A stretch of DNA of 61,848 nucleotides, filler included. It is 6 parts of 6 records of this genome, joined end to end, with 100 filler letters (N's around TTAATTAATTAA, not from the genome) between each part and the next. Parts side by side here need not be neighbours in the genome. Positions count along the whole stretch, not along the records: positions 24,755 to 41,250 come from SRR2962707_2824; 5 more parts are not named here. One strand, given 5' to 3'. The notes under the pieces were generated by a model. It was not told the DNA's origin, searched no databases, and was given only the letters and a program-made list of their open reading frames with translations. The translations under genes were made by a program, and so were the position numbers. Positions 4,275-36,361 of this stretch are shown here, piece after piece. Within the stretch, counting starts at the first letter, position 1. Every line of letters begins with the position of its first letter.

Positions 4275-5019
4275 CGTCACGCCGGCTTCGGCCGGCTGGA
4301 CGCATGTCGGTTTCGGCTTGCATAGCTTGGTACCGGGCCAAGCCTATGGTGAGGAGACCGGCGAGCGCGAGGTCTGCCTGGTGCTGGTCAGCGGCAAAGG
4401 CCGCTTTGCCGTCGATGGCGAGGACTTCGGAGAACTGGGCGACCGCATGAGCCCATTCGATGGTGCGCCGCACGCGCTTTATGTGCCTGCGGGAAGGCAT
4501 TGGGCAGTGGATGCGACGACCGATCTGGAACTGGCTGTCTGCTCGGCGCCGGGTGGCGGAGACTATCATGCCAGGGTCATTCCACCCGGCACGCATCCAC
4601 GTGTTACGCGTGGTACCGGCGCCAATGTGCGGCATGTCCACAATATCATGCCCGAGGATGATGGGGCGGCCAATGCGCTGCTGGTTGTCGAGGTCATCAC
4701 GCCACAGGGGAATACCTCATCCTACCCACCACACAAGCACGACCAGGACAATCTTCCGCACGAAAGCCAGTTGGAAGAGACCTATTATCACCGGATGAAC
4801 CCGCCGCAGGGCTTCGCCTTTCAGCGTATTTTCACCGATGACCGGAGCCTGGACGAAGCCATAGCGATCGAGGATGGCGACGTGACCCTGGTGCCGCGCG
4901 GATATCATCCGGTGGCGACGACAGCGGGTTATGACCTCTACTATCTCAACGTCATGGCGGGGCCCAAGCGCGTATGGAAGTTCCACAATGCGCCCGAGCA
5001 TGAGTGGATGCTGAAATAG
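4219..5019 (+). CDS. iolB: 5-deoxy-glucuronate isomerase
   Basis: EREVCLVLVSG, SSYPPHKHD, LEETYYHR, GYHPV, YYLNVMAGP; RBS AGGAG upstream of ATG 4219. Confidence 0.95.
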   Translation: MSKSPLLVRPTSKTGRIHDVTPASAGWTHVGFGLHSLVPGQAYGEETGEREVCLVLVSGKGRFAVDGEDFGELGDRMSPFDGAPHALYVPAGRHWAVDATTDLELAVCSAPGGGDYHARVIPPGTHPRVTRGTGANVRHVHNIMPEDDGAANALLVVEVITPQGNTSSYPPHKHDQDNLPHESQLEETYYHRMNPPQGFAFQRIFTDDRSLDEAIAIEDGDVTLVPRGYHPVATTAGYDLYYLNVMAGPKRVWKFHNAPEHEWMLK

Positions 5020-5028
5020 CGGCGTCGC

Positions 5029-5400
5029 TCAGACGTGCTGGTCGAACAGGATGACATTGCCATCCGGGTCGGTGACCGAGAAATTCGCCGGCCCGGAGGA
5101 TTGCGGGTCAATCTCGGTGCCGACTTCAATCCCAACTGACTTGAGCGACTGCTGGATTTTCCGGATGTCGGTGAAATCCGGCAATTGCTCGGAATCGGCG
5201 TTCCAGCCCGGATTGAAGGTCAGGATGTTCTTGTCGAACATGCCCTGAAACAGGCCGATTACATGGTCACCGTTTTTCATGATGAGCCAGTTCTGGGCCT
5301 CCTCGCCCATGATCGCGGAGAAACCAAGCTTCTCATAGAAGCTGCGCGAGGCTGCAATATCCTTGACGGCGAGGCTGACGGAAAAGGCACCGAGTTCCAT
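5029..5400 (-). CDS. VOC/glyoxalase family protein
   Basis: MELGAFSVSLAVKDIAASRSFYEKLGF ... DPDGNVILFDQHV. Confidence 0.88.
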   Translation of the reverse strand: MELGAFSVSLAVKDIAASRSFYEKLGFSAIMGEEAQNWLIMKNGDHVIGLFQGMFDKNILTFNPGWNADSEQLPDFTDIRKIQQSLKSVGIEVGTEIDPQSSGPANFSVTDPDGNVILFDQHV

Positions 5401-5465
5401 TGGACGCTCCCTTGTCTTGTTCGCAAAGACTAAGGAGGTCGGCCGGTGGTCGCAAGGTCGGCGGC

Positions 5466-6503
5466 CTAGCGACCCTGAAATACGGACCGGTCTGCCAGCG
5501 GGCCAGTGATTTCGCTGACCTTGACCGCCCGACCTTCGGACACCGATTTCAATGCCGCATCGGCCAGAGCGAGGGCAATGAGCCCGTCGGCACCACTCGG
5601 TGCGGCCGGAGACTTTGATTCAACGCAATCTATGAAGTGGCTGATTTCGCGGGCATAAGCCTCAGTGTAGCGGGTCATGAAAAAATCGTGCAGGGGCGGT
5701 CTTGTATAGCCCTCTGCGTTGGCAATCTCGATGGAAACCGGGCGCTGGTTCTCTGCGGCAACGGCGCCCTTGGAGCCATGGACCTCGATGCGCTGGTCAT
5801 AGCCATAGGTGGCGCGGCGCGAATTCGAAATGGTGGCATGCCTGCCCGATGCCGTGGCCAGCATGATCGAGGCGCTGTCGAAGTCGCCGGCTTCGCCAAT
5901 GGCCTTGTCCACTAGAACCGAAGCCTGGGCGGAGACGGTTTCGATCTCCTCGCCCAGCAGGAAGCGGGCCATGTCGAAATCGTGGATCGTCATGTCGCGG
6001 AAAATGCCGCCGGAGCGCTTCACATAGTCGGCCGGCGGCGCACCGGGATCGCGGGAGATGATCGTGACCATCTCGACGTCACCGATCTGGCCATCGGCAA
6101 TGGCCTGTTTTACCGCCTGGAAATGTGGATCGAAGCGCCGGTTGAAACCAACCATCAGCGTCGCGCCGGTTTCATCGACGACCCGGAGACAGGCCTTCAC
6201 CCGCTCGACGTCGAGATCAATGGGCTTTTCGCAGAAGATGGCCTTGCCTGCGCGGGAAAAGCGTTCGATCAGATCGGCGTGGGTATCGGTGGGGGTACAG
6301 ATGATGACCGCATCAATGTCCGACGCCGTCTCGATGGCTTCGATCGTGCGCACCTGGGCGCCATATTGCCCGGCGAGTGCCGAGGCAGCTTCCGGCATCG
6401 CATCGGCCACAGCGACCAGTTCGGCCCGCGCGTTCGAAGAGACGGCCTTGGCGTGTACTTTTCCAATGCGACCTGCCCCGAGCAGGCCAAAACGAATGGT
6501 CAT
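5466..6503 (-). CDS. iolG: myo-inositol 2-dehydrogenase
   Basis: GLLGAGRIG, CEKPID, GFNRRFDP, GGIFRDMTIHDFD, YGYDQRIEVHG; iol context. Confidence 0.93.
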   Translation of the reverse strand: MTIRFGLLGAGRIGKVHAKAVSSNARAELVAVADAMPEAASALAGQYGAQVRTIEAIETASDIDAVIICTPTDTHADLIERFSRAGKAIFCEKPIDLDVERVKACLRVVDETGATLMVGFNRRFDPHFQAVKQAIADGQIGDVEMVTIISRDPGAPPADYVKRSGGIFRDMTIHDFDMARFLLGEEIETVSAQASVLVDKAIGEAGDFDSASIMLATASGRHATISNSRRATYGYDQRIEVHGSKGAVAAENQRPVSIEIANAEGYTRPPLHDFFMTRYTEAYAREISHFIDCVESKSPAAPSGADGLIALALADAALKSVSEGRAVKVSEITGPLADRSVFQGR

Positions 6504-30066: not shown

Positions 30067-30507
30067 ATGTTTCTATCGGAACTGAATGAGCCCCAAAAAC
30101 ACGCCTTTCTGGTCCTGGCACATCGGATCACACAGGCCGACGGCGAGGATTCAGCCGAAGAGAACGAAGCCCTGGAATCGCTCTCGGCCGAGATGGACAT
30201 CCCCTTCGACACCGACATGAAGGCGATCCTCGCAGATATCGACATCAGCATGTTCAACACCCACCGCGCACGCGTCATCGCCGCGCTGGAACTGATGCGG
30301 ATGGTCTATGCAGACGATTACGTGCACGAAGCCGAAGTCGCCGAGGTCCTCAAAATCTGCAAGGCCATGGCCTTCCCGGAACCGTGGATCGTCACCATGC
30401 GGGAATGGGCAAAGCGGCTGAGCTGGACCGAGGAAGATACCGCCGACGCCCAGCGCGCCGATTATCACAGGGCGCTGGTCGATTATGCGCACAGCATCAT
30501 GGGCTGA
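30067..30507 (+). CDS. TerB-like (tellurite resistance/DjlA N-terminal fold) protein
   Basis: MFLSELNEPQKHAFLVLA...ADG...EE and MVYADDYVHEAE: duplicated AD(G)..E motifs. Confidence 0.7.
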   Translation: MFLSELNEPQKHAFLVLAHRITQADGEDSAEENEALESLSAEMDIPFDTDMKAILADIDISMFNTHRARVIAALELMRMVYADDYVHEAEVAEVLKICKAMAFPEPWIVTMREWAKRLSWTEEDTADAQRADYHRALVDYAHSIMG

Positions 30508-30629
30508 GCCTGCGTTCAGCCTGCGGCCGGTTGCAGGTCAGTTTGATTATAATTTTTGCGTGTGCTGGATCGGCTGCAGAACTTCCGCTATGTTTTATGA
30601 AACATAAAACAAAACATGCGGAGGAAACG

Positions 30630-31481
30630 ATGAGCAAACTTGATAATGCCGGCACGCCTGAAAACCTGGCCCTGCCGCTCAAGGTCTATTGGCAGCCGGG
30701 TTGTTCGAGCTGTCTCAAAACCAAGGAATTCCTGCTCGAGCACGGCGTCCCCTTCCTGTCGGTCAATGTTCTCGACGACGAACAGGGCTTCAAGGAACTG
30801 GAAGCGCTCGGGGTGCGGCTGGTACCGATCGTTGCGCGCGGCGATGTCTGGGCCAACGGTGCCGTGTTCCGCGATGTCGCCCGGGTCGCCGGGTTCGAAT
30901 ACGGCGAGCACAAGATGCTGACACCCGAACAGATGAAGGACAGGGTGCTGATGATCCTTGATGCAGCAGCCCGCTATCTGCAGCAGATCCCCGACGACAA
31001 GCTCGACGTCGTATTGCCGGGCCGGCCCCGGTCCTACCGCCAGCTCGTCTATCACGTCTTCGATATTCCCAAGGTCTTTCTCGACATGGTCGAAGAGGAC
31101 ATTCCCTACACCTACGAAGCGCTGCTTTCCGTTCTCCCCGATGAAATGGCGACCAAACAGGATTTGCTGGACTACGGTCAGGGCAATCGCAAGCGCTTCA
31201 CCGACTGGTGGGAACGGGAAGGCAAGACCACCGATTTCAAACAGCCCGCCGATGTCTATTACGGCGAGGTTTCGCTGCACGAAGTCCTGGAACGGACCTG
31301 CTGGCATTCCGGTCAGCACACCCGCCAGATCATCCTGATGCTGCGTGAAAAGCTCGGGGTTGAGCCGGACGGGCCTCTCGACGACAGCGATTTCGAAGGT
31401 CTGCCGCTGCCCAAAAACGTCTGGGACAACGAACGCTCCTTCGACGAAGCCTCCTACGCGGGGCCTGTTGCAGTCAGTTGA
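30630..31481 (+). CDS. glutaredoxin-like (CSSC) domain fused to DinB-like domain
   Basis: RBS GGAGG; VYWQPGCSSCLKTKEFL, VPIV cis-Pro; RSYRQLVYHVF and ERTCWHSGQHTRQI DinB His motifs. Confidence 0.78.
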   Translation: MSKLDNAGTPENLALPLKVYWQPGCSSCLKTKEFLLEHGVPFLSVNVLDDEQGFKELEALGVRLVPIVARGDVWANGAVFRDVARVAGFEYGEHKMLTPEQMKDRVLMILDAAARYLQQIPDDKLDVVLPGRPRSYRQLVYHVFDIPKVFLDMVEEDIPYTYEALLSVLPDEMATKQDLLDYGQGNRKRFTDWWEREGKTTDFKQPADVYYGEVSLHEVLERTCWHSGQHTRQIILMLREKLGVEPDGPLDDSDFEGLPLPKNVWDNERSFDEASYAGPVAVS

Positions 31482-31652: not shown

Positions 31653-32162
31653 ATGAACGAGCACCCCAAACTTTATCACCTCCGGGATGTCGGCATTGAA
31701 AACAATCCGCTTCCGGTGTTTGACGAGGTACTCGCCTACTGGCACGCGTGCCGGGGTGACCGGTTTGCGCCGTCGTGGACCGATATAAATCTGATGGCGC
31801 TGCCGCCACAAGTACTGCCCTTCACCATCGTCGTCGATATACAGTCCCCGCCGCAGCCGATCCTTTACCGCTATTACGGTTCGGGCATCGCCAAGAATCA
31901 TGGCTTTGAAATGACCAATCGCACCAGCGACGATATCGAGCCCGAGCAATTGCGCCAGCATATCCTCAGCCAGTACGCGATCATCGTCGAGGCCCGCGCC
32001 CCCCGCCTGTTCGCGACGGATATCTATGTGAAGCACGGGCTTCGGCTGCAGGACCTTGTCCTGCGCCTGCCGCTGTCAGGTAACGGCGAAACGGTCACCA
32101 ATGTGATCACCGTGGAACAGCACTGGAACAAAGATCAGACGCCAACGGGTATAAACATCTGA
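31653..32162 (+). CDS. standalone PAS-like domain protein (PAS_5 type)
   Basis: LAYWHACRGDRFAPSWTDI, YRYYGSGI, LRLPLSGNGETVTNVI. Confidence 0.72.
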   Translation: MNEHPKLYHLRDVGIENNPLPVFDEVLAYWHACRGDRFAPSWTDINLMALPPQVLPFTIVVDIQSPPQPILYRYYGSGIAKNHGFEMTNRTSDDIEPEQLRQHILSQYAIIVEARAPRLFATDIYVKHGLRLQDLVLRLPLSGNGETVTNVITVEQHWNKDQTPTGINI

Positions 32163-32238
32163 TCTGCGTCCGTTTCTGTTAATCTTTCGTGTCATGGCGG
32201 ATATACGGTTGCATCACGCGGCCGGACACGTTCTAAAT

Positions 32239-32253
32239 TGCTGCAATGCAGCA
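32239..32253. promoter_or_regulatory. palindromic operator, PhaR-like
   Basis: TGCTGCA-A-TGCAGCA perfect inverted repeat 12 nt before the fabI ATG; contains CTGC-N3-GCAG. Confidence 0.5.
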
Positions 32254-32265
32254 TAAAGACGCCCC

Positions 32266-33034
32266 ATGACCAGAATTCTCGACGGAAAGCGCGGCCTTGT
32301 GGTCGGCATCGCCAACAACCAGTCCATCGCCTATGGGTGTGCGCGGGCTTTTGCCGACGCCGGTGCGGAACTGGCGGTCACCTATCTCAACGACAAATCC
32401 AGGAGCTATGTCGAGCCGCTTGCGGAAGAGCTCAACGCCGGAATTTTTTCTACCCTGTGACGTGCGCGAGCCCGGGCAACTGGAAAGCCTGTTCGACACC
32501 ATCGCCGACACCTGGGGGAAACTGGATTTTGTGCTGCATTCGATTGCTTTTGCGCCGCGTGAAGACCTGCACGGCCGGGTCACGGACTGTTCACGCGACG
32601 GGTTCGATATCGCGATGAACGTGTCATGCCATTCGTTCATCCGCATGGCCCACTATGCCGAACCGCTGATGACCGATGGCGGCGCCCTGATGACCGTCAG
32701 TTTCTATGGCGCCGAGAAAGCGGTTTCGTCCTACAACGTGATGGGCCCCGTGAAGGCAGCACTGGAGGCATCCGTACGCTACATGGCAGCGGAAATGGGG
32801 CCGAACGGGATACGTGTTTATGCGCTGTCACCGGGGCCGCTGAGTACGCGCGCCGCGTCGGGGATTGATCGCTTTGACGAATTGATGGAAGCCGCCGCGA
32901 AGAAAGCGCCGATGCATGCCCTGGTCACCCTGGAGCAGATCGGCAATCTCGCCGCTTTCCTGGCGTCAGACAACGCCGACGGCATGACCGGCAACGTGGT
33001 CTATATCGATAACGGCTATAATATCATCGGTTGA
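32266..33034 (+). pseudogene. fabI: enoyl-ACP reductase FabI, frameshifted at a T6 run (or sequencing error)
   Basis: GKRGLVVGIANNQSIAYG...ELNAGIF lies in one frame and LPCDV...HSIAFAP...YNVMGPVKAALE...TRAASGI in another; deleting one T at 32444-32449 joins them. Confidence 0.85.
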
Positions 33035-33217
33035 TGCGCCGAATGACTGTCGGGGCAGAATCGTTCACCGCAGAGCCTAGCAGCGCGGCTTAATCTATCC
33101 CTTAACGAGTACAACAATCTTTATAGTTGAATTATATACTATTAAATAGTTATTATAAAAATGAAGACTCGTTATAAGAGTATTCTGATTGTTGAAACGA
33201 TAACAGGGAGAGTTGAA

Positions 33218-33463
33218 ATGGCCGTATCAATTGGCGGAACCATCACCATCAACATCAAGGATCTGAACATGCTGCCGAGCAGCGATGCCGACTGCGAAGC
33301 TTTTTGCCTTCAAGTCATCGGCCCGGAATGCTGGCAACAGATCGATTCCATACGGGGTTTGTCCGCCACCGGCGTTTCGGGAGCGACCCGCGCCGGATCG
33401 GCGGACCCGGATCTGGCTGCCAAAAGCGTCAGCATCGGCGTGTCGATCACCGGCACTTTCTGA
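33218..33463 (+). CDS. 81-aa hypothetical protein with related terminal beta-strand motifs; candidate metacaspase substrate
   Basis: RBS AGGGAG upstream of ATG 33218; codon usage like its neighbours; co-oriented 67 nt upstream of the metacaspase. Confidence 0.75.
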   Translation: MAVSIGGTITINIKDLNMLPSSDADCEAFCLQVIGPECWQQIDSIRGLSATGVSGATRAGSADPDLAAKSVSIGVSITGTF

Positions 33464-33469
33464 GACAAT

Positions 33470-33499
33470 GGTCAGGTCCGGTTCAAGCCGGGCCTGACC
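33470..33499 (+). promoter_or_regulatory. intercistronic stem-loop
   Basis: GGTCAGGTCCGG-TTCAAG-CCGGGCCTGACC, 12-bp stem (one G-U), no U-tail. Confidence 0.65.
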
Positions 33500-33530
33500 G
33501 AACTCTGTACCTCAAGGCAGGAGTTCCATC

Positions 33531-34310
33531 ATGAAAAAGAAAGCCCTACTCGTCGGCATCAACAAGTATTCAATTGAAACCGAAAATCTGCGCGGCTGCA
33601 TCAATGATGTGATCAACCTCAAGGATATCCTGATCCAGAAGCGGGGGTTTCAGCCGGATGACATCAAGCTGGTCCTCGATGAAGCGGCAACCGACATCAA
33701 TATCAAGCAGTGCCTCAGCGAGCTTGTTTCGGACTCCGTAAGCGGCGACCAGCTCGTCTTCGGGTTTTCCGGGCACGGCGTGCAGAAAGGGTACAATCAA
33801 CCCGGCGAAGAAGATGGGCGTGATGAAGCCATCGTGCCGCATAACATCTCATATGAGTCACTGATTACCGATGACGAGCTGTTCGACATTATCACGCAAC
33901 GTGTCCACGGGCCCGATATCAAGTTCACGGCAATCTATGACTGCTGTCATTCCGGCACCTTGGCACGGTCGATGAGCTTCGATGACGCAGGCAATCTGGT
34001 GATCGTTGCGAACAGATGCCTCAACATGCCGGATATTCTCATTCTACAGCAACGTACCCGGCGTGCGATGATCGGCCCTTATAACGTACTGTCCGCCTGC
34101 AAGGACGCCGAGACGGCGGCAGACCTGAAACCGTCTGGCAGCGATTACCGCGGCGCATTCAGCTACAGTCTGCACAATGTCTGGGGTAACAACATCGACA
34201 TGCCGATCAACGATCTGGAAGGGCCGGTGATGCAGGGCATCAAGGACATCAGCCCGCACAAGCAGACGCCGCAGTACTACGCCGTTGATCCTGCACTGCC
34301 CGCCTTGTGA
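33531..34310 (+). CDS. standalone metacaspase (peptidase C14)
   Basis: KKALLVGINKY, LRGCINDV, FSGHG (catalytic His), DGRDEAIVP, YDCCHSGT (catalytic Cys), LSACKDAETAAD, GAFSYSL, QTPQ; RBS AGGAG. Confidence 0.92.
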   Translation: MKKKALLVGINKYSIETENLRGCINDVINLKDILIQKRGFQPDDIKLVLDEAATDINIKQCLSELVSDSVSGDQLVFGFSGHGVQKGYNQPGEEDGRDEAIVPHNISYESLITDDELFDIITQRVHGPDIKFTAIYDCCHSGTLARSMSFDDAGNLVIVANRCLNMPDILILQQRTRRAMIGPYNVLSACKDAETAADLKPSGSDYRGAFSYSLHNVWGNNIDMPINDLEGPVMQGIKDISPHKQTPQYYAVDPALPAL

Positions 34311-34365
34311 CGTGCAGGATCGGTGCCGCAGGCGCAGCTAAACCTATCAATCAACTTGGGGAGGC

Positions 34366-34545
34366 TCAGGCGCCCTGCGCCTGCAGCCGCTTGGCCTGGG
34401 AAATCGCGTCTTTGAGGTTCGTGTATTTGTAGCCGCCGATATGAAAGCAGTCGACCGGGATATTGGTGATCCCGTACTCGATCATGAGACCCTTGTTTTC
34501 AGTGGCGTCGGCTTTGCCGGCATTGCCTTTTGTCGGTTCAATCAT
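34366..34545 (-). CDS. 59-aa small protein (absent from the ORF track)
   Basis: GGAG RBS; MIEPTKGNAGKADATENKGLMIEYGITNIPVDCFHIGGYKYTNLKDAISQAKRLQAQGA*. Confidence 0.7.
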   Translation of the reverse strand: MIEPTKGNAGKADATENKGLMIEYGITNIPVDCFHIGGYKYTNLKDAISQAKRLQAQGA

Positions 34546-34765
34546 TGTGTTTCTCCGTTCTGGTTGTTTTGCATCGAGGCCCTGAGGGGTCCGCTGCGCC
34601 GCCGACCATCGCCGTGCCGCAGCAGAAAGGCCGCACGGCCGGTGTCGTCTGGCGGGTATAGCCGCATTTACTGCAATGAATGAACACGGCAGCGGGGACG
34701 CTCAGGTTACGGTCGGGTGTCAGGGGCGGCGGCGCCTTGCCGTTCGCCCCCGGTGCAGGGATGCC

Positions 34766-34888
34766 TCAGGTTTTTCTCGCAGACGTGTCGTCAGCAGGTT
34801 TTTTCTCAGGCTGCGCCGGTGCCGTCGCGACGACCGGTGTGGCCGGCTTTTCCGTTTTCGAGCCTGTAGAGAATGATTTGAAGGACAT
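34766..34888 (-). CDS. 40-aa Ala/Pro/Lys-rich small protein (absent from the ORF track)
   Basis: AAGGGA RBS; MSFKSFSTGSKTEKPATPVVATAPAQPEKKPADDTSARKT*; downstream of an AT-rich promoter-like tract. Confidence 0.55.
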   Translation of the reverse strand: MSFKSFSTGSKTEKPATPVVATAPAQPEKKPADDTSARKT

Positions 34889-35107
34889 GGGATCGTCCCT
34901 TTCAATTACGGACGGAAATGATATTCCATCACGCAGACAGTAGTCTCAATTAAGTATTTATGCAAGTTATATATTTAAAAATACTCATATATTACAATTA
35001 TTTAAACAATTTTATCTAATTATTATTTATGCCTTTATTTTATTTTTATTGTATTTTATTGCACGATTACAGCCCTTTAGAGACGCAACCCTTATGGCAG
35101 ACATGCG

Positions 35108-35134
35108 GAAAGCCCCGCCCCCAGGGGCGGGACA
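35108..35134 (-). terminator. probable ccrM terminator
   Basis: Minus strand CCCGCCCC-TG-GGGGCGGG stem followed by GCTTTC, about 35 nt after the ccrM stop. Confidence 0.5.
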
Positions 35135-35166
35135 GATCCGGCAGTTGATTGAAAACGTGATGCCGC

Positions 35167-36361
<1,195 letters not shown>

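Follow-up and report, generated by a model that had tools for sequence, protein, structure and literature searches.

The stretch of DNA analysed here (the window, 61,848 nucleotides, filler included) consists of parts of six records of one genome joined end to end. In the part that comes from SRR2962707_2824, it contains a module of two genes and about 1.1 kb, in which a gene for a small protein is followed by a gene for a metacaspase. The small gene (33218-33463, plus strand, as are all the features of the module) encodes an acidic protein of 81 amino acids, P0001, and is preceded by the Shine-Dalgarno sequence AGGGAGA (33205-33211). The metacaspase gene (33531-34310) encodes a standalone protein of 259 amino acids, P0002, and has its own Shine-Dalgarno sequence, AGGAG, at 33519-33523. 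A GC hairpin with a 13-bp stem (33470-33499) lies between the two. This layout had been described in an earlier note on the same DNA (the original prediction): a short open reading frame (ORF) with its own ribosome-binding site, a strong hairpin, and a peptidase C14 with a His/Cys dyad and no sensor, TPR or NLR domain. All three elements are present as described.

Four other loci of the same metacaspase subfamily, for which DNA is available, serve for comparison. L001 and L002 come from Rhodospirillales assemblies, and their proteases are 92% and 90% identical to P0002. L003 belongs to Pseudolabrys (45% identity), and L007 is a metagenome contig (52%), the one locus found by a metagenome scan with sub-alignment A2. 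Both Shine-Dalgarno sequences of the module are kept in L001 and L002.

P0002 matches the Pfam family Peptidase_C14 (PF00656) over residues 2-251 with 83.2 bits (cut-off 21.4; E = 2.8e-23), and the Pfam scan found no second domain in the protein, a sensor included. It is also recognized by the generic caspase model of PADLOC (8.4e-21). A profile of 29 members of the subfamily (A5), compared with the sequences of the PDB, retrieves Yca1 of yeast (4f6o, 1.1e-38) and AtMC4 of Arabidopsis (6w8s, 1.2e-38), followed by AtMC9 and the Trypanosoma protein TbMCA2 (E to 1e-31), and the top matches are all metacaspases. Judged by its sequence, P0002 is a true metacaspase with an intact dyad, formed by His82 in the motif FSGHG (codon 33774-33776) and Cys139 in DCCHSG (codon 33945-33947). 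Its N-terminus (MKKKALLVGINKY) is the ordinary first strand of the C14 fold. The subfamily comprises 28 clusters at 42-92% identity, 27 of which are 254-277 amino acids long and one of which is a fragment; the next match is at 37%.

His82, Cys139, Asp26, Asp192, Asp198 and Arg177 are invariant in the 29 members. The three aspartates presumably line the S1 pocket and make it specific for Arg/Lys; metacaspases cut after these two residues. Many metacaspases are activated by calcium, which is bound in an acidic EEDG-DE-vP stretch, and the alignment matches this stretch of the P0002 subfamily with its counterparts in Yca1 and AtMC4. Arg177 belongs to the RTRR-A motif that the original prediction had pointed out in the protease, and sits between the two protease lobes.

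The hairpin begins seven bases past the stop codon of the small gene, in a spacer of 67 nt between the genes. The stretch folds with -36.7 kcal/mol (z = -4.5), and none of 200 shuffled versions folds as well. It is a frequent, non-obligatory part of the module, found in four of the five loci and in two of three independent lineages: L001 and L002 retain the stem, and in L007 its place is taken by a GC stem of 12 bp that is unrelated in sequence (z = -4.5). An intrinsic terminator was rejected for want of a U-tract, a repeated element because the hairpin occurs as a single copy in the window, and a known RNA family because Rfam gave no match. By analogy with precursor-enzyme operons, the hairpin probably favours the upstream product, either as a partial attenuator or terminator or by protecting the 3' end of the mRNA.

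The small protein and its family

The small ORF is, from its pattern of substitutions, a real gene under purifying selection: the ratio of non-synonymous to synonymous changes (pN/pS) is 0.14-0.34 in comparison with L001 and L002, vs. 0.09-0.14 for the protease. A longer reading of 100 amino acids, starting from the ATG at 33161, was rejected; it is not conserved, and the extension meets a stop codon in L001.

A phmmer search of 1.84 billion representatives gave 11 matches at E <= 0.001, eight of which are proteins of 72-81 amino acids. P0006, P0012 and P0013 are long repeat proteins aligned over 22-31 residues within their repeats only; these matches are regarded as spurious, and the proteins are not fused forms. 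When 5.8 billion clusters were searched with a profile, 11 proteins with lengths of 63-85 amino acids were retrieved. The family as defined here holds 14 distinct sequences, that of the window included (alignment A3). It is very rare, with about 14 sequence clusters, and previously undescribed. Where a source name exists, it is "hypothetical protein", from assemblies of Rhodospirillales, Rhodobacteraceae and Pseudolabrys.

No member matches a Pfam family at E <= 10, and NCBIfam yielded, at the same threshold, only two stray matches, each of a single member. PADLOC reported nothing for P0001, a profile search of the PDB sequences with the family gave no match at E <= 10, and the ESM Atlas held no usable match. 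In Pfam, NCBIfam, PADLOC and the PDB sequences, there is no named family to which the small protein could be assigned.

In the AlphaFold2 (AF2) model, built with the 14-sequence alignment, P0001 is composed of a strand (residues 4-13), a helix (23-51), a linker, a short helix (64-68) and a C-terminal strand (71-80). The model of another member, P0007, repeats this plan, with the elements of its C-terminal part displaced by one residue. The mean predicted local distance difference test (pLDDT) is 72.5 for P0001 and 70.5 for P0007; in both, the lowest values (54-57) are those of the linker around Arg58, a stretch that is probably flexible. As the models contain only two strands, these must be paired together, and the predicted beta-alpha-beta plan is common to the family.

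According to column statistics, the two strands are the most conserved parts of the protein. Positions 3, 5, 9, 11, 13, 71, 73, 75 and 77 are of the Ile/Val/Leu/Phe type in 86-100% of the sequences, and the alternate positions 4, 6, 8, 10, 12, 72, 74, 76 and 78 are Ser/Thr/Gly/Asn in 71-93%. Both terminal strands contain an (I/V)-(S/T)-(I/V)-G core. The C-terminal residue is Phe in 13 of the 14 members, and Gly35, in the long helix, is kept in nine.

A basic residue marks the inner boundary of each strand, and the flexible linker contains a third one, an Arg. At the end of strand 1, position 14 is Arg or Lys in 13 of the 14 members and is followed by an invariant Asp15 (14/14). The linker has an Arg at column 58 or 59 in every member, always with Thr, Gln or Asn at P2, and position 69, directly before the C-terminal strand, is Arg or Lys in all 14. 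Arg or Lys is also found at position 46 (12/13). The original prediction had named SIR, ATR and AAK (R46, R58 and K69) as basic sites, and these prove to be at positions conserved in the family. On grounds of conservation, three residues of P0001 are candidate cleavage sites: Lys14 (codon 33257-33259), Arg58 in the low-confidence linker (ATR-AG; 33389-33391), and Lys69 (33422-33424), where a cut would free a peptide of 12 residues. T-R-(A/D)-like contexts occur both at Arg58/59 of the small protein and at Arg177 of the protease.

The intact protein is acidic in the whole family (isoelectric point, pI, 4.2-5.2) and has no segment of transmembrane grade: the highest Kyte-Doolittle mean over 19 residues ranges from 0.37 to 1.26 among the 14 members, compared with a usual threshold of 1.6. 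There is no signal peptide in P0001, as judged from its N-terminal sequence and hydropathy alone. A Foldseek comparison of the AF2 model with the PDB gave no match at E <= 0.001. In VIA-align, run against 48,161 chains, the best Z was 4.2, for pieces of stomatin/SPFH proteins, a value inside the noise range of the tool.

Pairing and distribution of the two genes

The two genes are a dedicated, co-inherited unit, and their pairing is established for five loci. A member of the small family lies directly upstream of the metacaspase in the window, L001, L002, L003 and L007, where it ends 39-67 bases before the start of the protease. The original prediction had proposed such a unit and named the gene neighbourhood of the closest metacaspase homologues as the place to look; the upstream small ORF is there in all five loci with DNA. 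The partner in L003 is only 32% identical to P0001, yet its kinship is clear (pairwise E = 1e-7), and its match to the family profile is at E = 4e-17.

The five loci represent three independent lineages in three different neighbourhoods. In the window, L001 and L002, a PAS_5 gene is found on one side of the module and ccrM on the other, with fabI in the window only. In L003 the neighbours, identified from their translations alone, are a YqeY-like and a cupin gene, and in L007 they are a wrbA-like gene (again identified by translation only) and a tyrosine-recombinase-like integrase. Five further pairs of small-protein and caspase clusters have longest contigs of equal length (1150, 15740, 3073, 4633 and 1063), and one of these pairs is directly confirmed by L007. 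The profile of the small family found no member in 25 viral-contig loci with metacaspases 26-39% identical, nor in 20 loci of other proteobacterial caspases (flanks of about 1.5 kb).

Over eight pairs, the pairwise identities of partner and protease are correlated with r = 0.96, a value reached in 14 of 5000 permutations. Since two tight clades dominate this correlation, it is to be read as co-inheritance, not as co-evolution.

The module is patchy and horizontally scattered among Alphaproteobacteria. In the family of G001, the genome of L001, the module was found in two of 96 genomes, and in the class of G001 the small-protein profile matched one of 401. The caspase profile matched one of 401 genomes sampled from the family of G003 (at most six candidates scored per genome), and a search with P0041 one of 401 in the order of G003. 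All the matches of these sweeps are the source genomes of the loci alone. Among plasmids, only three partial caspase matches were found, at 35-40% identity. The accessory character that had been suggested for the pair is backed by this distribution.

In L007, the integrase gene (4327-5613, plus strand; 428 amino acids) lies about 260 bp past the metacaspase stop, which suggests that the module of this contig is at the edge of a mobile island; no tRNA gene was found within the 6.2-kb locus. The genome of L001 contains a second, different caspase-family gene, in a frame of 363 amino acids (L044; G001:C14:331698-332366, minus strand). It scores 107 bits to the NCBIfam model NF047832, below the cut-off, and the 1.5 kb around it contain nothing related to the small protein. 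Several giant-virus contigs of IMG/VR named GVMAG (L018, L019, L024, L025, L029, L033 and L034) also encode metacaspases, with 29-32% identity to P0002, and none of these loci has a small partner.

Flanking DNA and neighbouring genes

A promoter-like site, TTGAAT-18-TATTAT, is located 5' of the small gene (33127-33156, plus strand; 9 of 12 consensus matches). It is weak, as such sites are no commoner in this region than in shuffled sequences. The AT-rich tract that holds it has a GC content of 0.375-0.38, and L007 likewise has an AT-rich tract 5' of its small gene.

The module was originally described as lying between fabI and ccrM and as bracketed by AT-rich tracts. The left-hand tract is confirmed, but the right-hand one is not: it lies at 34900-35100 (GC 0.265), about 600 bp beyond the protease stop, and does not bracket the module because it is within an 850-bp segment (34312-35161) without counterpart in L002. 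This segment, between the metacaspase gene and ccrM, is present in L001. It holds an ORF of 59 amino acids (34366-34545, minus strand), conserved in L001 in a reading of 75 amino acids and without a Pfam match. A resemblance to the first 42 residues of NCBIfam Sul2 looks spurious (19 bits vs. a cut-off of 575).

Upstream, fabI (enoyl-ACP reductase; 32266-33034) is read in two frames, split at a run of six T near 32444-32449; with one T less, the usual ...NAGIFLPCDV... reading is obtained. The segment with the whole of fabI, 32152-33038, is missing at the same site in L001 and L002. The split fabI may be a decaying extra copy, or the result of a homopolymer sequencing error. On the other side, ccrM (35167-36267, minus strand) encodes a CcrM-type N6-adenine methyltransferase with a C-terminal RAMA domain (Pfam, 5.7e-16). 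Its DNA is 96% identical to that of L002, above the 87-89% of the surrounding DNA. Further away, an ORF at 30384-31481 (plus strand) combines a glutaredoxin domain (residues 100-151) with a DinB_2 domain (195-316); its listed GTG start probably overextends the N-terminus.

Function of the pair

The described systems closest in layout are the EACC1-caspase pairs, where a small non-enzymatic protein is also encoded 5' of a caspase-superfamily protease (Kaur et al. 2020, PMC7159879; Evans et al. 2025, 10.1101/2025.11.14.688446). In the characterised case, as given in the available part of the preprint, the protease cuts the small protein in a linker, which takes away an N-terminal part that had formed a sheet with C-terminal strands, and what is left makes pores in the membrane (10.1101/2025.11.14.688446). 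EACC1 is, on the contrary, defined by a conserved transmembrane helix with a patch of Gly and small residues (PMC7159879, in its available text), and this helix is absent from all 14 members of the small family. Moreover, the proteases of EACC1 systems carry fused sensor or effector domains of variable kind, whereas P0002 is a bare metacaspase, and the available text on the studied EACC1 protease has it predicted to cut at Asp49. Compared with the NCBIfam model caspase_w_EACC1 (NF047832), P0002 reaches 38.9 bits vs. a cut-off of 140, and over residues 4-86 only. No relevant EACC1-like match was found for the 14 members in Pfam or NCBIfam at E <= 10, libraries in which the presence of an EACC1 model is unconfirmed, and bona fide EACC1-type caspases were above the cut-off in none of 301 genomes.

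Pepco, Trypco1 and Trypco2, partners of trypsin-like and caspase-like proteases, resemble the small protein in their size and in being encoded upstream of a protease. Such a partner is described, in the part of the preprint at hand, as a beta-rich protein that has an amphipathic helix and becomes active once a C-terminal piece is cut off (10.1101/2025.11.14.688446); Pepco differs in being cut after Ile, by a serine protease. Trypco2 is a helix followed by strands, unlike the strand-helix-strand order of the small family. None of the 14 members matches PF19631 (Trypco2) at E <= 10, no Trypco2 match was found in G001-G003, the genomes that contain the small gene, and hhalign of A3 with nine Trypco2 sequences gave a probability of 0.09% (E = 0.6). 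By analogy, the module may work like the EACC1-caspase and Pepco-protease pairs, while being a member of neither.

Bacterial operons of a gasdermin and a caspase-like protease follow a comparable scheme, in which an autoinhibited pore-former is licensed by an adjoining protease that removes a short C-terminal piece. Gasdermins differ from the 81-residue protein by their size of about 250-300 amino acids and their defined fold, and no gasdermin is among the fold matches of the AF2 model, which are weak throughout. In plants, the Ca2+-activated AtMC4 releases the C-terminal Pep1 from PROPEP1 by cutting after Arg. The likeness here lies in a true metacaspase with a protein of about 80-90 amino acids and a short C-terminal peptide after a conserved Arg/Lys; there is no sequence relation. 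A further parallel is offered by bacterial amyloid signalling motifs (BASS), where the C-terminus of one partner has the same motif as the N-terminus of a neighbouring NLR (Dyrka et al., 10.1101/2020.01.06.895854); according to the available text, BASS can also accompany CHAT caspase-like domains (10.1101/2020.01.06.895854). Short beta motifs rich in Gly and polar residues in a small protein beside a cell-death-type enzyme are common to both cases, but the present locus has no NLR and no shared motif, and the neighbour is a C14 protease. Concerning CATASP and CATRA, a literature search found only the mention in 10.1101/2025.11.14.688446 and one line of PMC8195603.

The reading tentatively favoured here is that of a protease-substrate pair, in which cleavage after Arg/Lys would free self-assembling or membrane-active strands. 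It is favoured because of the strict pairing, the conserved Arg/Lys residues that fit the expected specificity of the enzyme, the unusual chemistry of the strands, and the recent finding that 5' partners of caspase-like proteases, EACC1 and Pepco, are pore formers activated by cleavage (10.1101/2025.11.14.688446). The hairpin is counted on the same side, as a sign of a stoichiometry in favour of the upstream product. The 5' gene would then provide an excess of a soluble, acidic pro-protein of 80 residues, with its terminal strands paired together and covered by the amphipathic helix, and the 3' gene a minimal, sensor-less metacaspase cutting after Arg/Lys. Switched on by calcium or by autoprocessing at Arg177, the protease would cut the pro-protein at Arg58/59 and Arg/Lys69, and possibly at Arg/Lys14. 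The freed strands could assemble into a membrane-active or cross-beta oligomer, and the stressed or infected cell would arrest its growth or die. For the cleavage and its sites, the trigger, the self-assembly and the cellular outcome, this scheme draws on the conserved Arg/Lys, the chemistry of the strands and the analogy with EACC1 and Pepco.

Several observations weigh against a cleaved substrate. The intact small protein is soluble, acidic and without a transmembrane helix. The conserved basic residues could be structural, or belong to the pseudo-substrate loop of an inhibitor, and the strand pattern is also what would be expected of a plain two-stranded sheet packed on a helix. Confidence of the AF2 models is moderate, and the fold searches gave no pore-forming or amyloid relative. 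The protease lacks a sensor, which leaves the trigger unexplained, and the neighbourhoods consist of housekeeping genes, not of defence islands. The hairpin is missing from L003 (z = -0.3). Nine subfamily caspases on long contigs (P0020, P0030, P0034, P0036, P0037, P0040, P0041, P0042 and P0045) have no small partner among the protein matches of the phmmer and profile searches; two of these caspases come, by their source names, from complete Methylorubrum/Methylobacterium genomes. A complex prediction of the protease with the small protein, with an ipSAE of 0.00 in two runs made without alignments and without folded controls, speaks neither for nor against any reading. The same is true of transcription, as no RNA data were found for 33100-34400 beyond small shares in three runs of one study.

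A role as a dedicated inhibitor, or antitoxin-like regulator, that holds the sensor-less metacaspase inactive fits the same data almost as well as that of a substrate, although it is the more doubtful of the two. The Arg loop would serve as pseudo-substrate and the C-terminal strand as clamp, and loss or degradation of the small protein under stress would free the protease to attack targets in the cell; in these particulars too the proposal is no better than doubtful. As in type II toxin-antitoxin modules, the small acidic product is encoded first and the potentially harmful enzyme second, in a mobile, patchy module, and the upstream excess implied by the hairpin follows the same logic. An external brake would explain how a protease without sensor or regulatory domain is controlled, and strict pairing suits an inhibitor equally well. 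The small protein also diverges faster between lineages than the protease (32-40% vs. 46-54% identity), and its strand, helices with a break at Gly35 and C-terminal tail are loosely like ribbon-helix-helix (RHH) antitoxins. However, no RHH or other antitoxin family is matched by the 14 members at E <= 10, RHH_1 misses the small ORF in G001-G003 at E <= 0.001, and in both AF2 models strand 1 pairs within its own chain, so that it is unavailable for the ribbon of a dimer. The usual pair is one of acidic antitoxin and basic toxin, while here the two proteins are both acidic (pI 4.2-5.3). The missing antitoxin signal, the strand pairing and the acidity speak only weakly against an inhibitor. In addition, the 67-nt hairpin spacer takes the place of a translational coupling, which is unusual for toxin-antitoxin genes, and the best-conserved parts of the protein are the two strands and not the loop.

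Strict co-occurrence and co-divergence need only a physical or functional partnership, so the small protein might also activate the protease or direct it to its place, as a cofactor, adaptor or sensor, the real substrates being elsewhere in the cell or in an invader. Such a role was the first proposal for EACC1: Kaur et al. 2020 (PMC7159879, available text) suggested that the protein encoded 5' of caspases is a sensor, and a caspase-like protease without effector can protect E. coli from phages, as far as the accessible part of the preprint describes it (bioRxiv 10.1101/2025.11.14.688446). This role is nevertheless improbable: no ligand-binding, membrane or nucleic-acid-binding feature was found in the small protein, the conserved Arg/Lys in the flexible linker is explained more simply as a site of cleavage or as bait, and EACC1 itself proved, in the same preprint, to be a cleaved effector (bioRxiv 10.1101/2025.11.14.688446). 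It is very improbable that the two genes share no function at all, the small one being a leader peptide, or a conserved gene without relation to the protease gene, that just travels with it. The five loci amount to three independent lineages, and kin share their gene order; yet the pair is the sole feature common to three otherwise different neighbourhoods, the sequence of the small protein is under purifying selection, and its family, as rare as the caspase subfamily, is always accompanied by the matching caspase in the loci examined.

The protease-substrate reading has a more specific form, which is unlikely as a whole. In it, a minimal, sensor-less metacaspase, of the bacterial class from which eukaryotes received theirs, would have a genetically linked pro-peptide of its own. 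The two (I/V)-(S/T)-(I/V)-G strands, which resemble cross-beta cores of the RHIM type, would be clamped by the helix and bounded by the invariant Arg/Lys. Cleavage triggered by Ca2+ would excise the clamp, and the strands, once free, would form a polymer, either a pore or a functional amyloid, by which the cell is killed or arrested. If true, this would be a new class of death effectors licensed by a protease, very small in size, and no natural substrate of a bacterial metacaspase would have been known before it.

To our knowledge, the natural substrates of bacterial metacaspases are essentially unknown, and a literature search on metacaspases, in connection with small partners or with amyloid signalling, found no natural substrate. 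In a 2012 survey of prokaryotic caspase homologues, the available text gives the function as unknown for 70 of 217 metacaspase operons (PMC3501461). Modules of a protease and a small effector are a major logic of bacterial immunity according to the accessible part of 10.1101/2025.11.14.688446, and the partners described in the texts at hand, EACC1, Pepco and gasdermin, go with sensor-fused caspase-like or serine proteases. The type of module, a protease with a small partner, is known; what is new here is an undescribed family of about 80 residues tied to a bare, eukaryote-like metacaspase. In a system of two genes and about 1.1 kb, cleavage specificity, activation (by calcium or autoprocessing) and fate of the product are directly testable. 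Either outcome, substrate or inhibitor, would be informative, and an inhibitor would be a new kind of metacaspase regulator. In compact form, the module may hold the first partner known to be dedicated to a bacterial metacaspase, with a function of this partner that is, for now, inferred.

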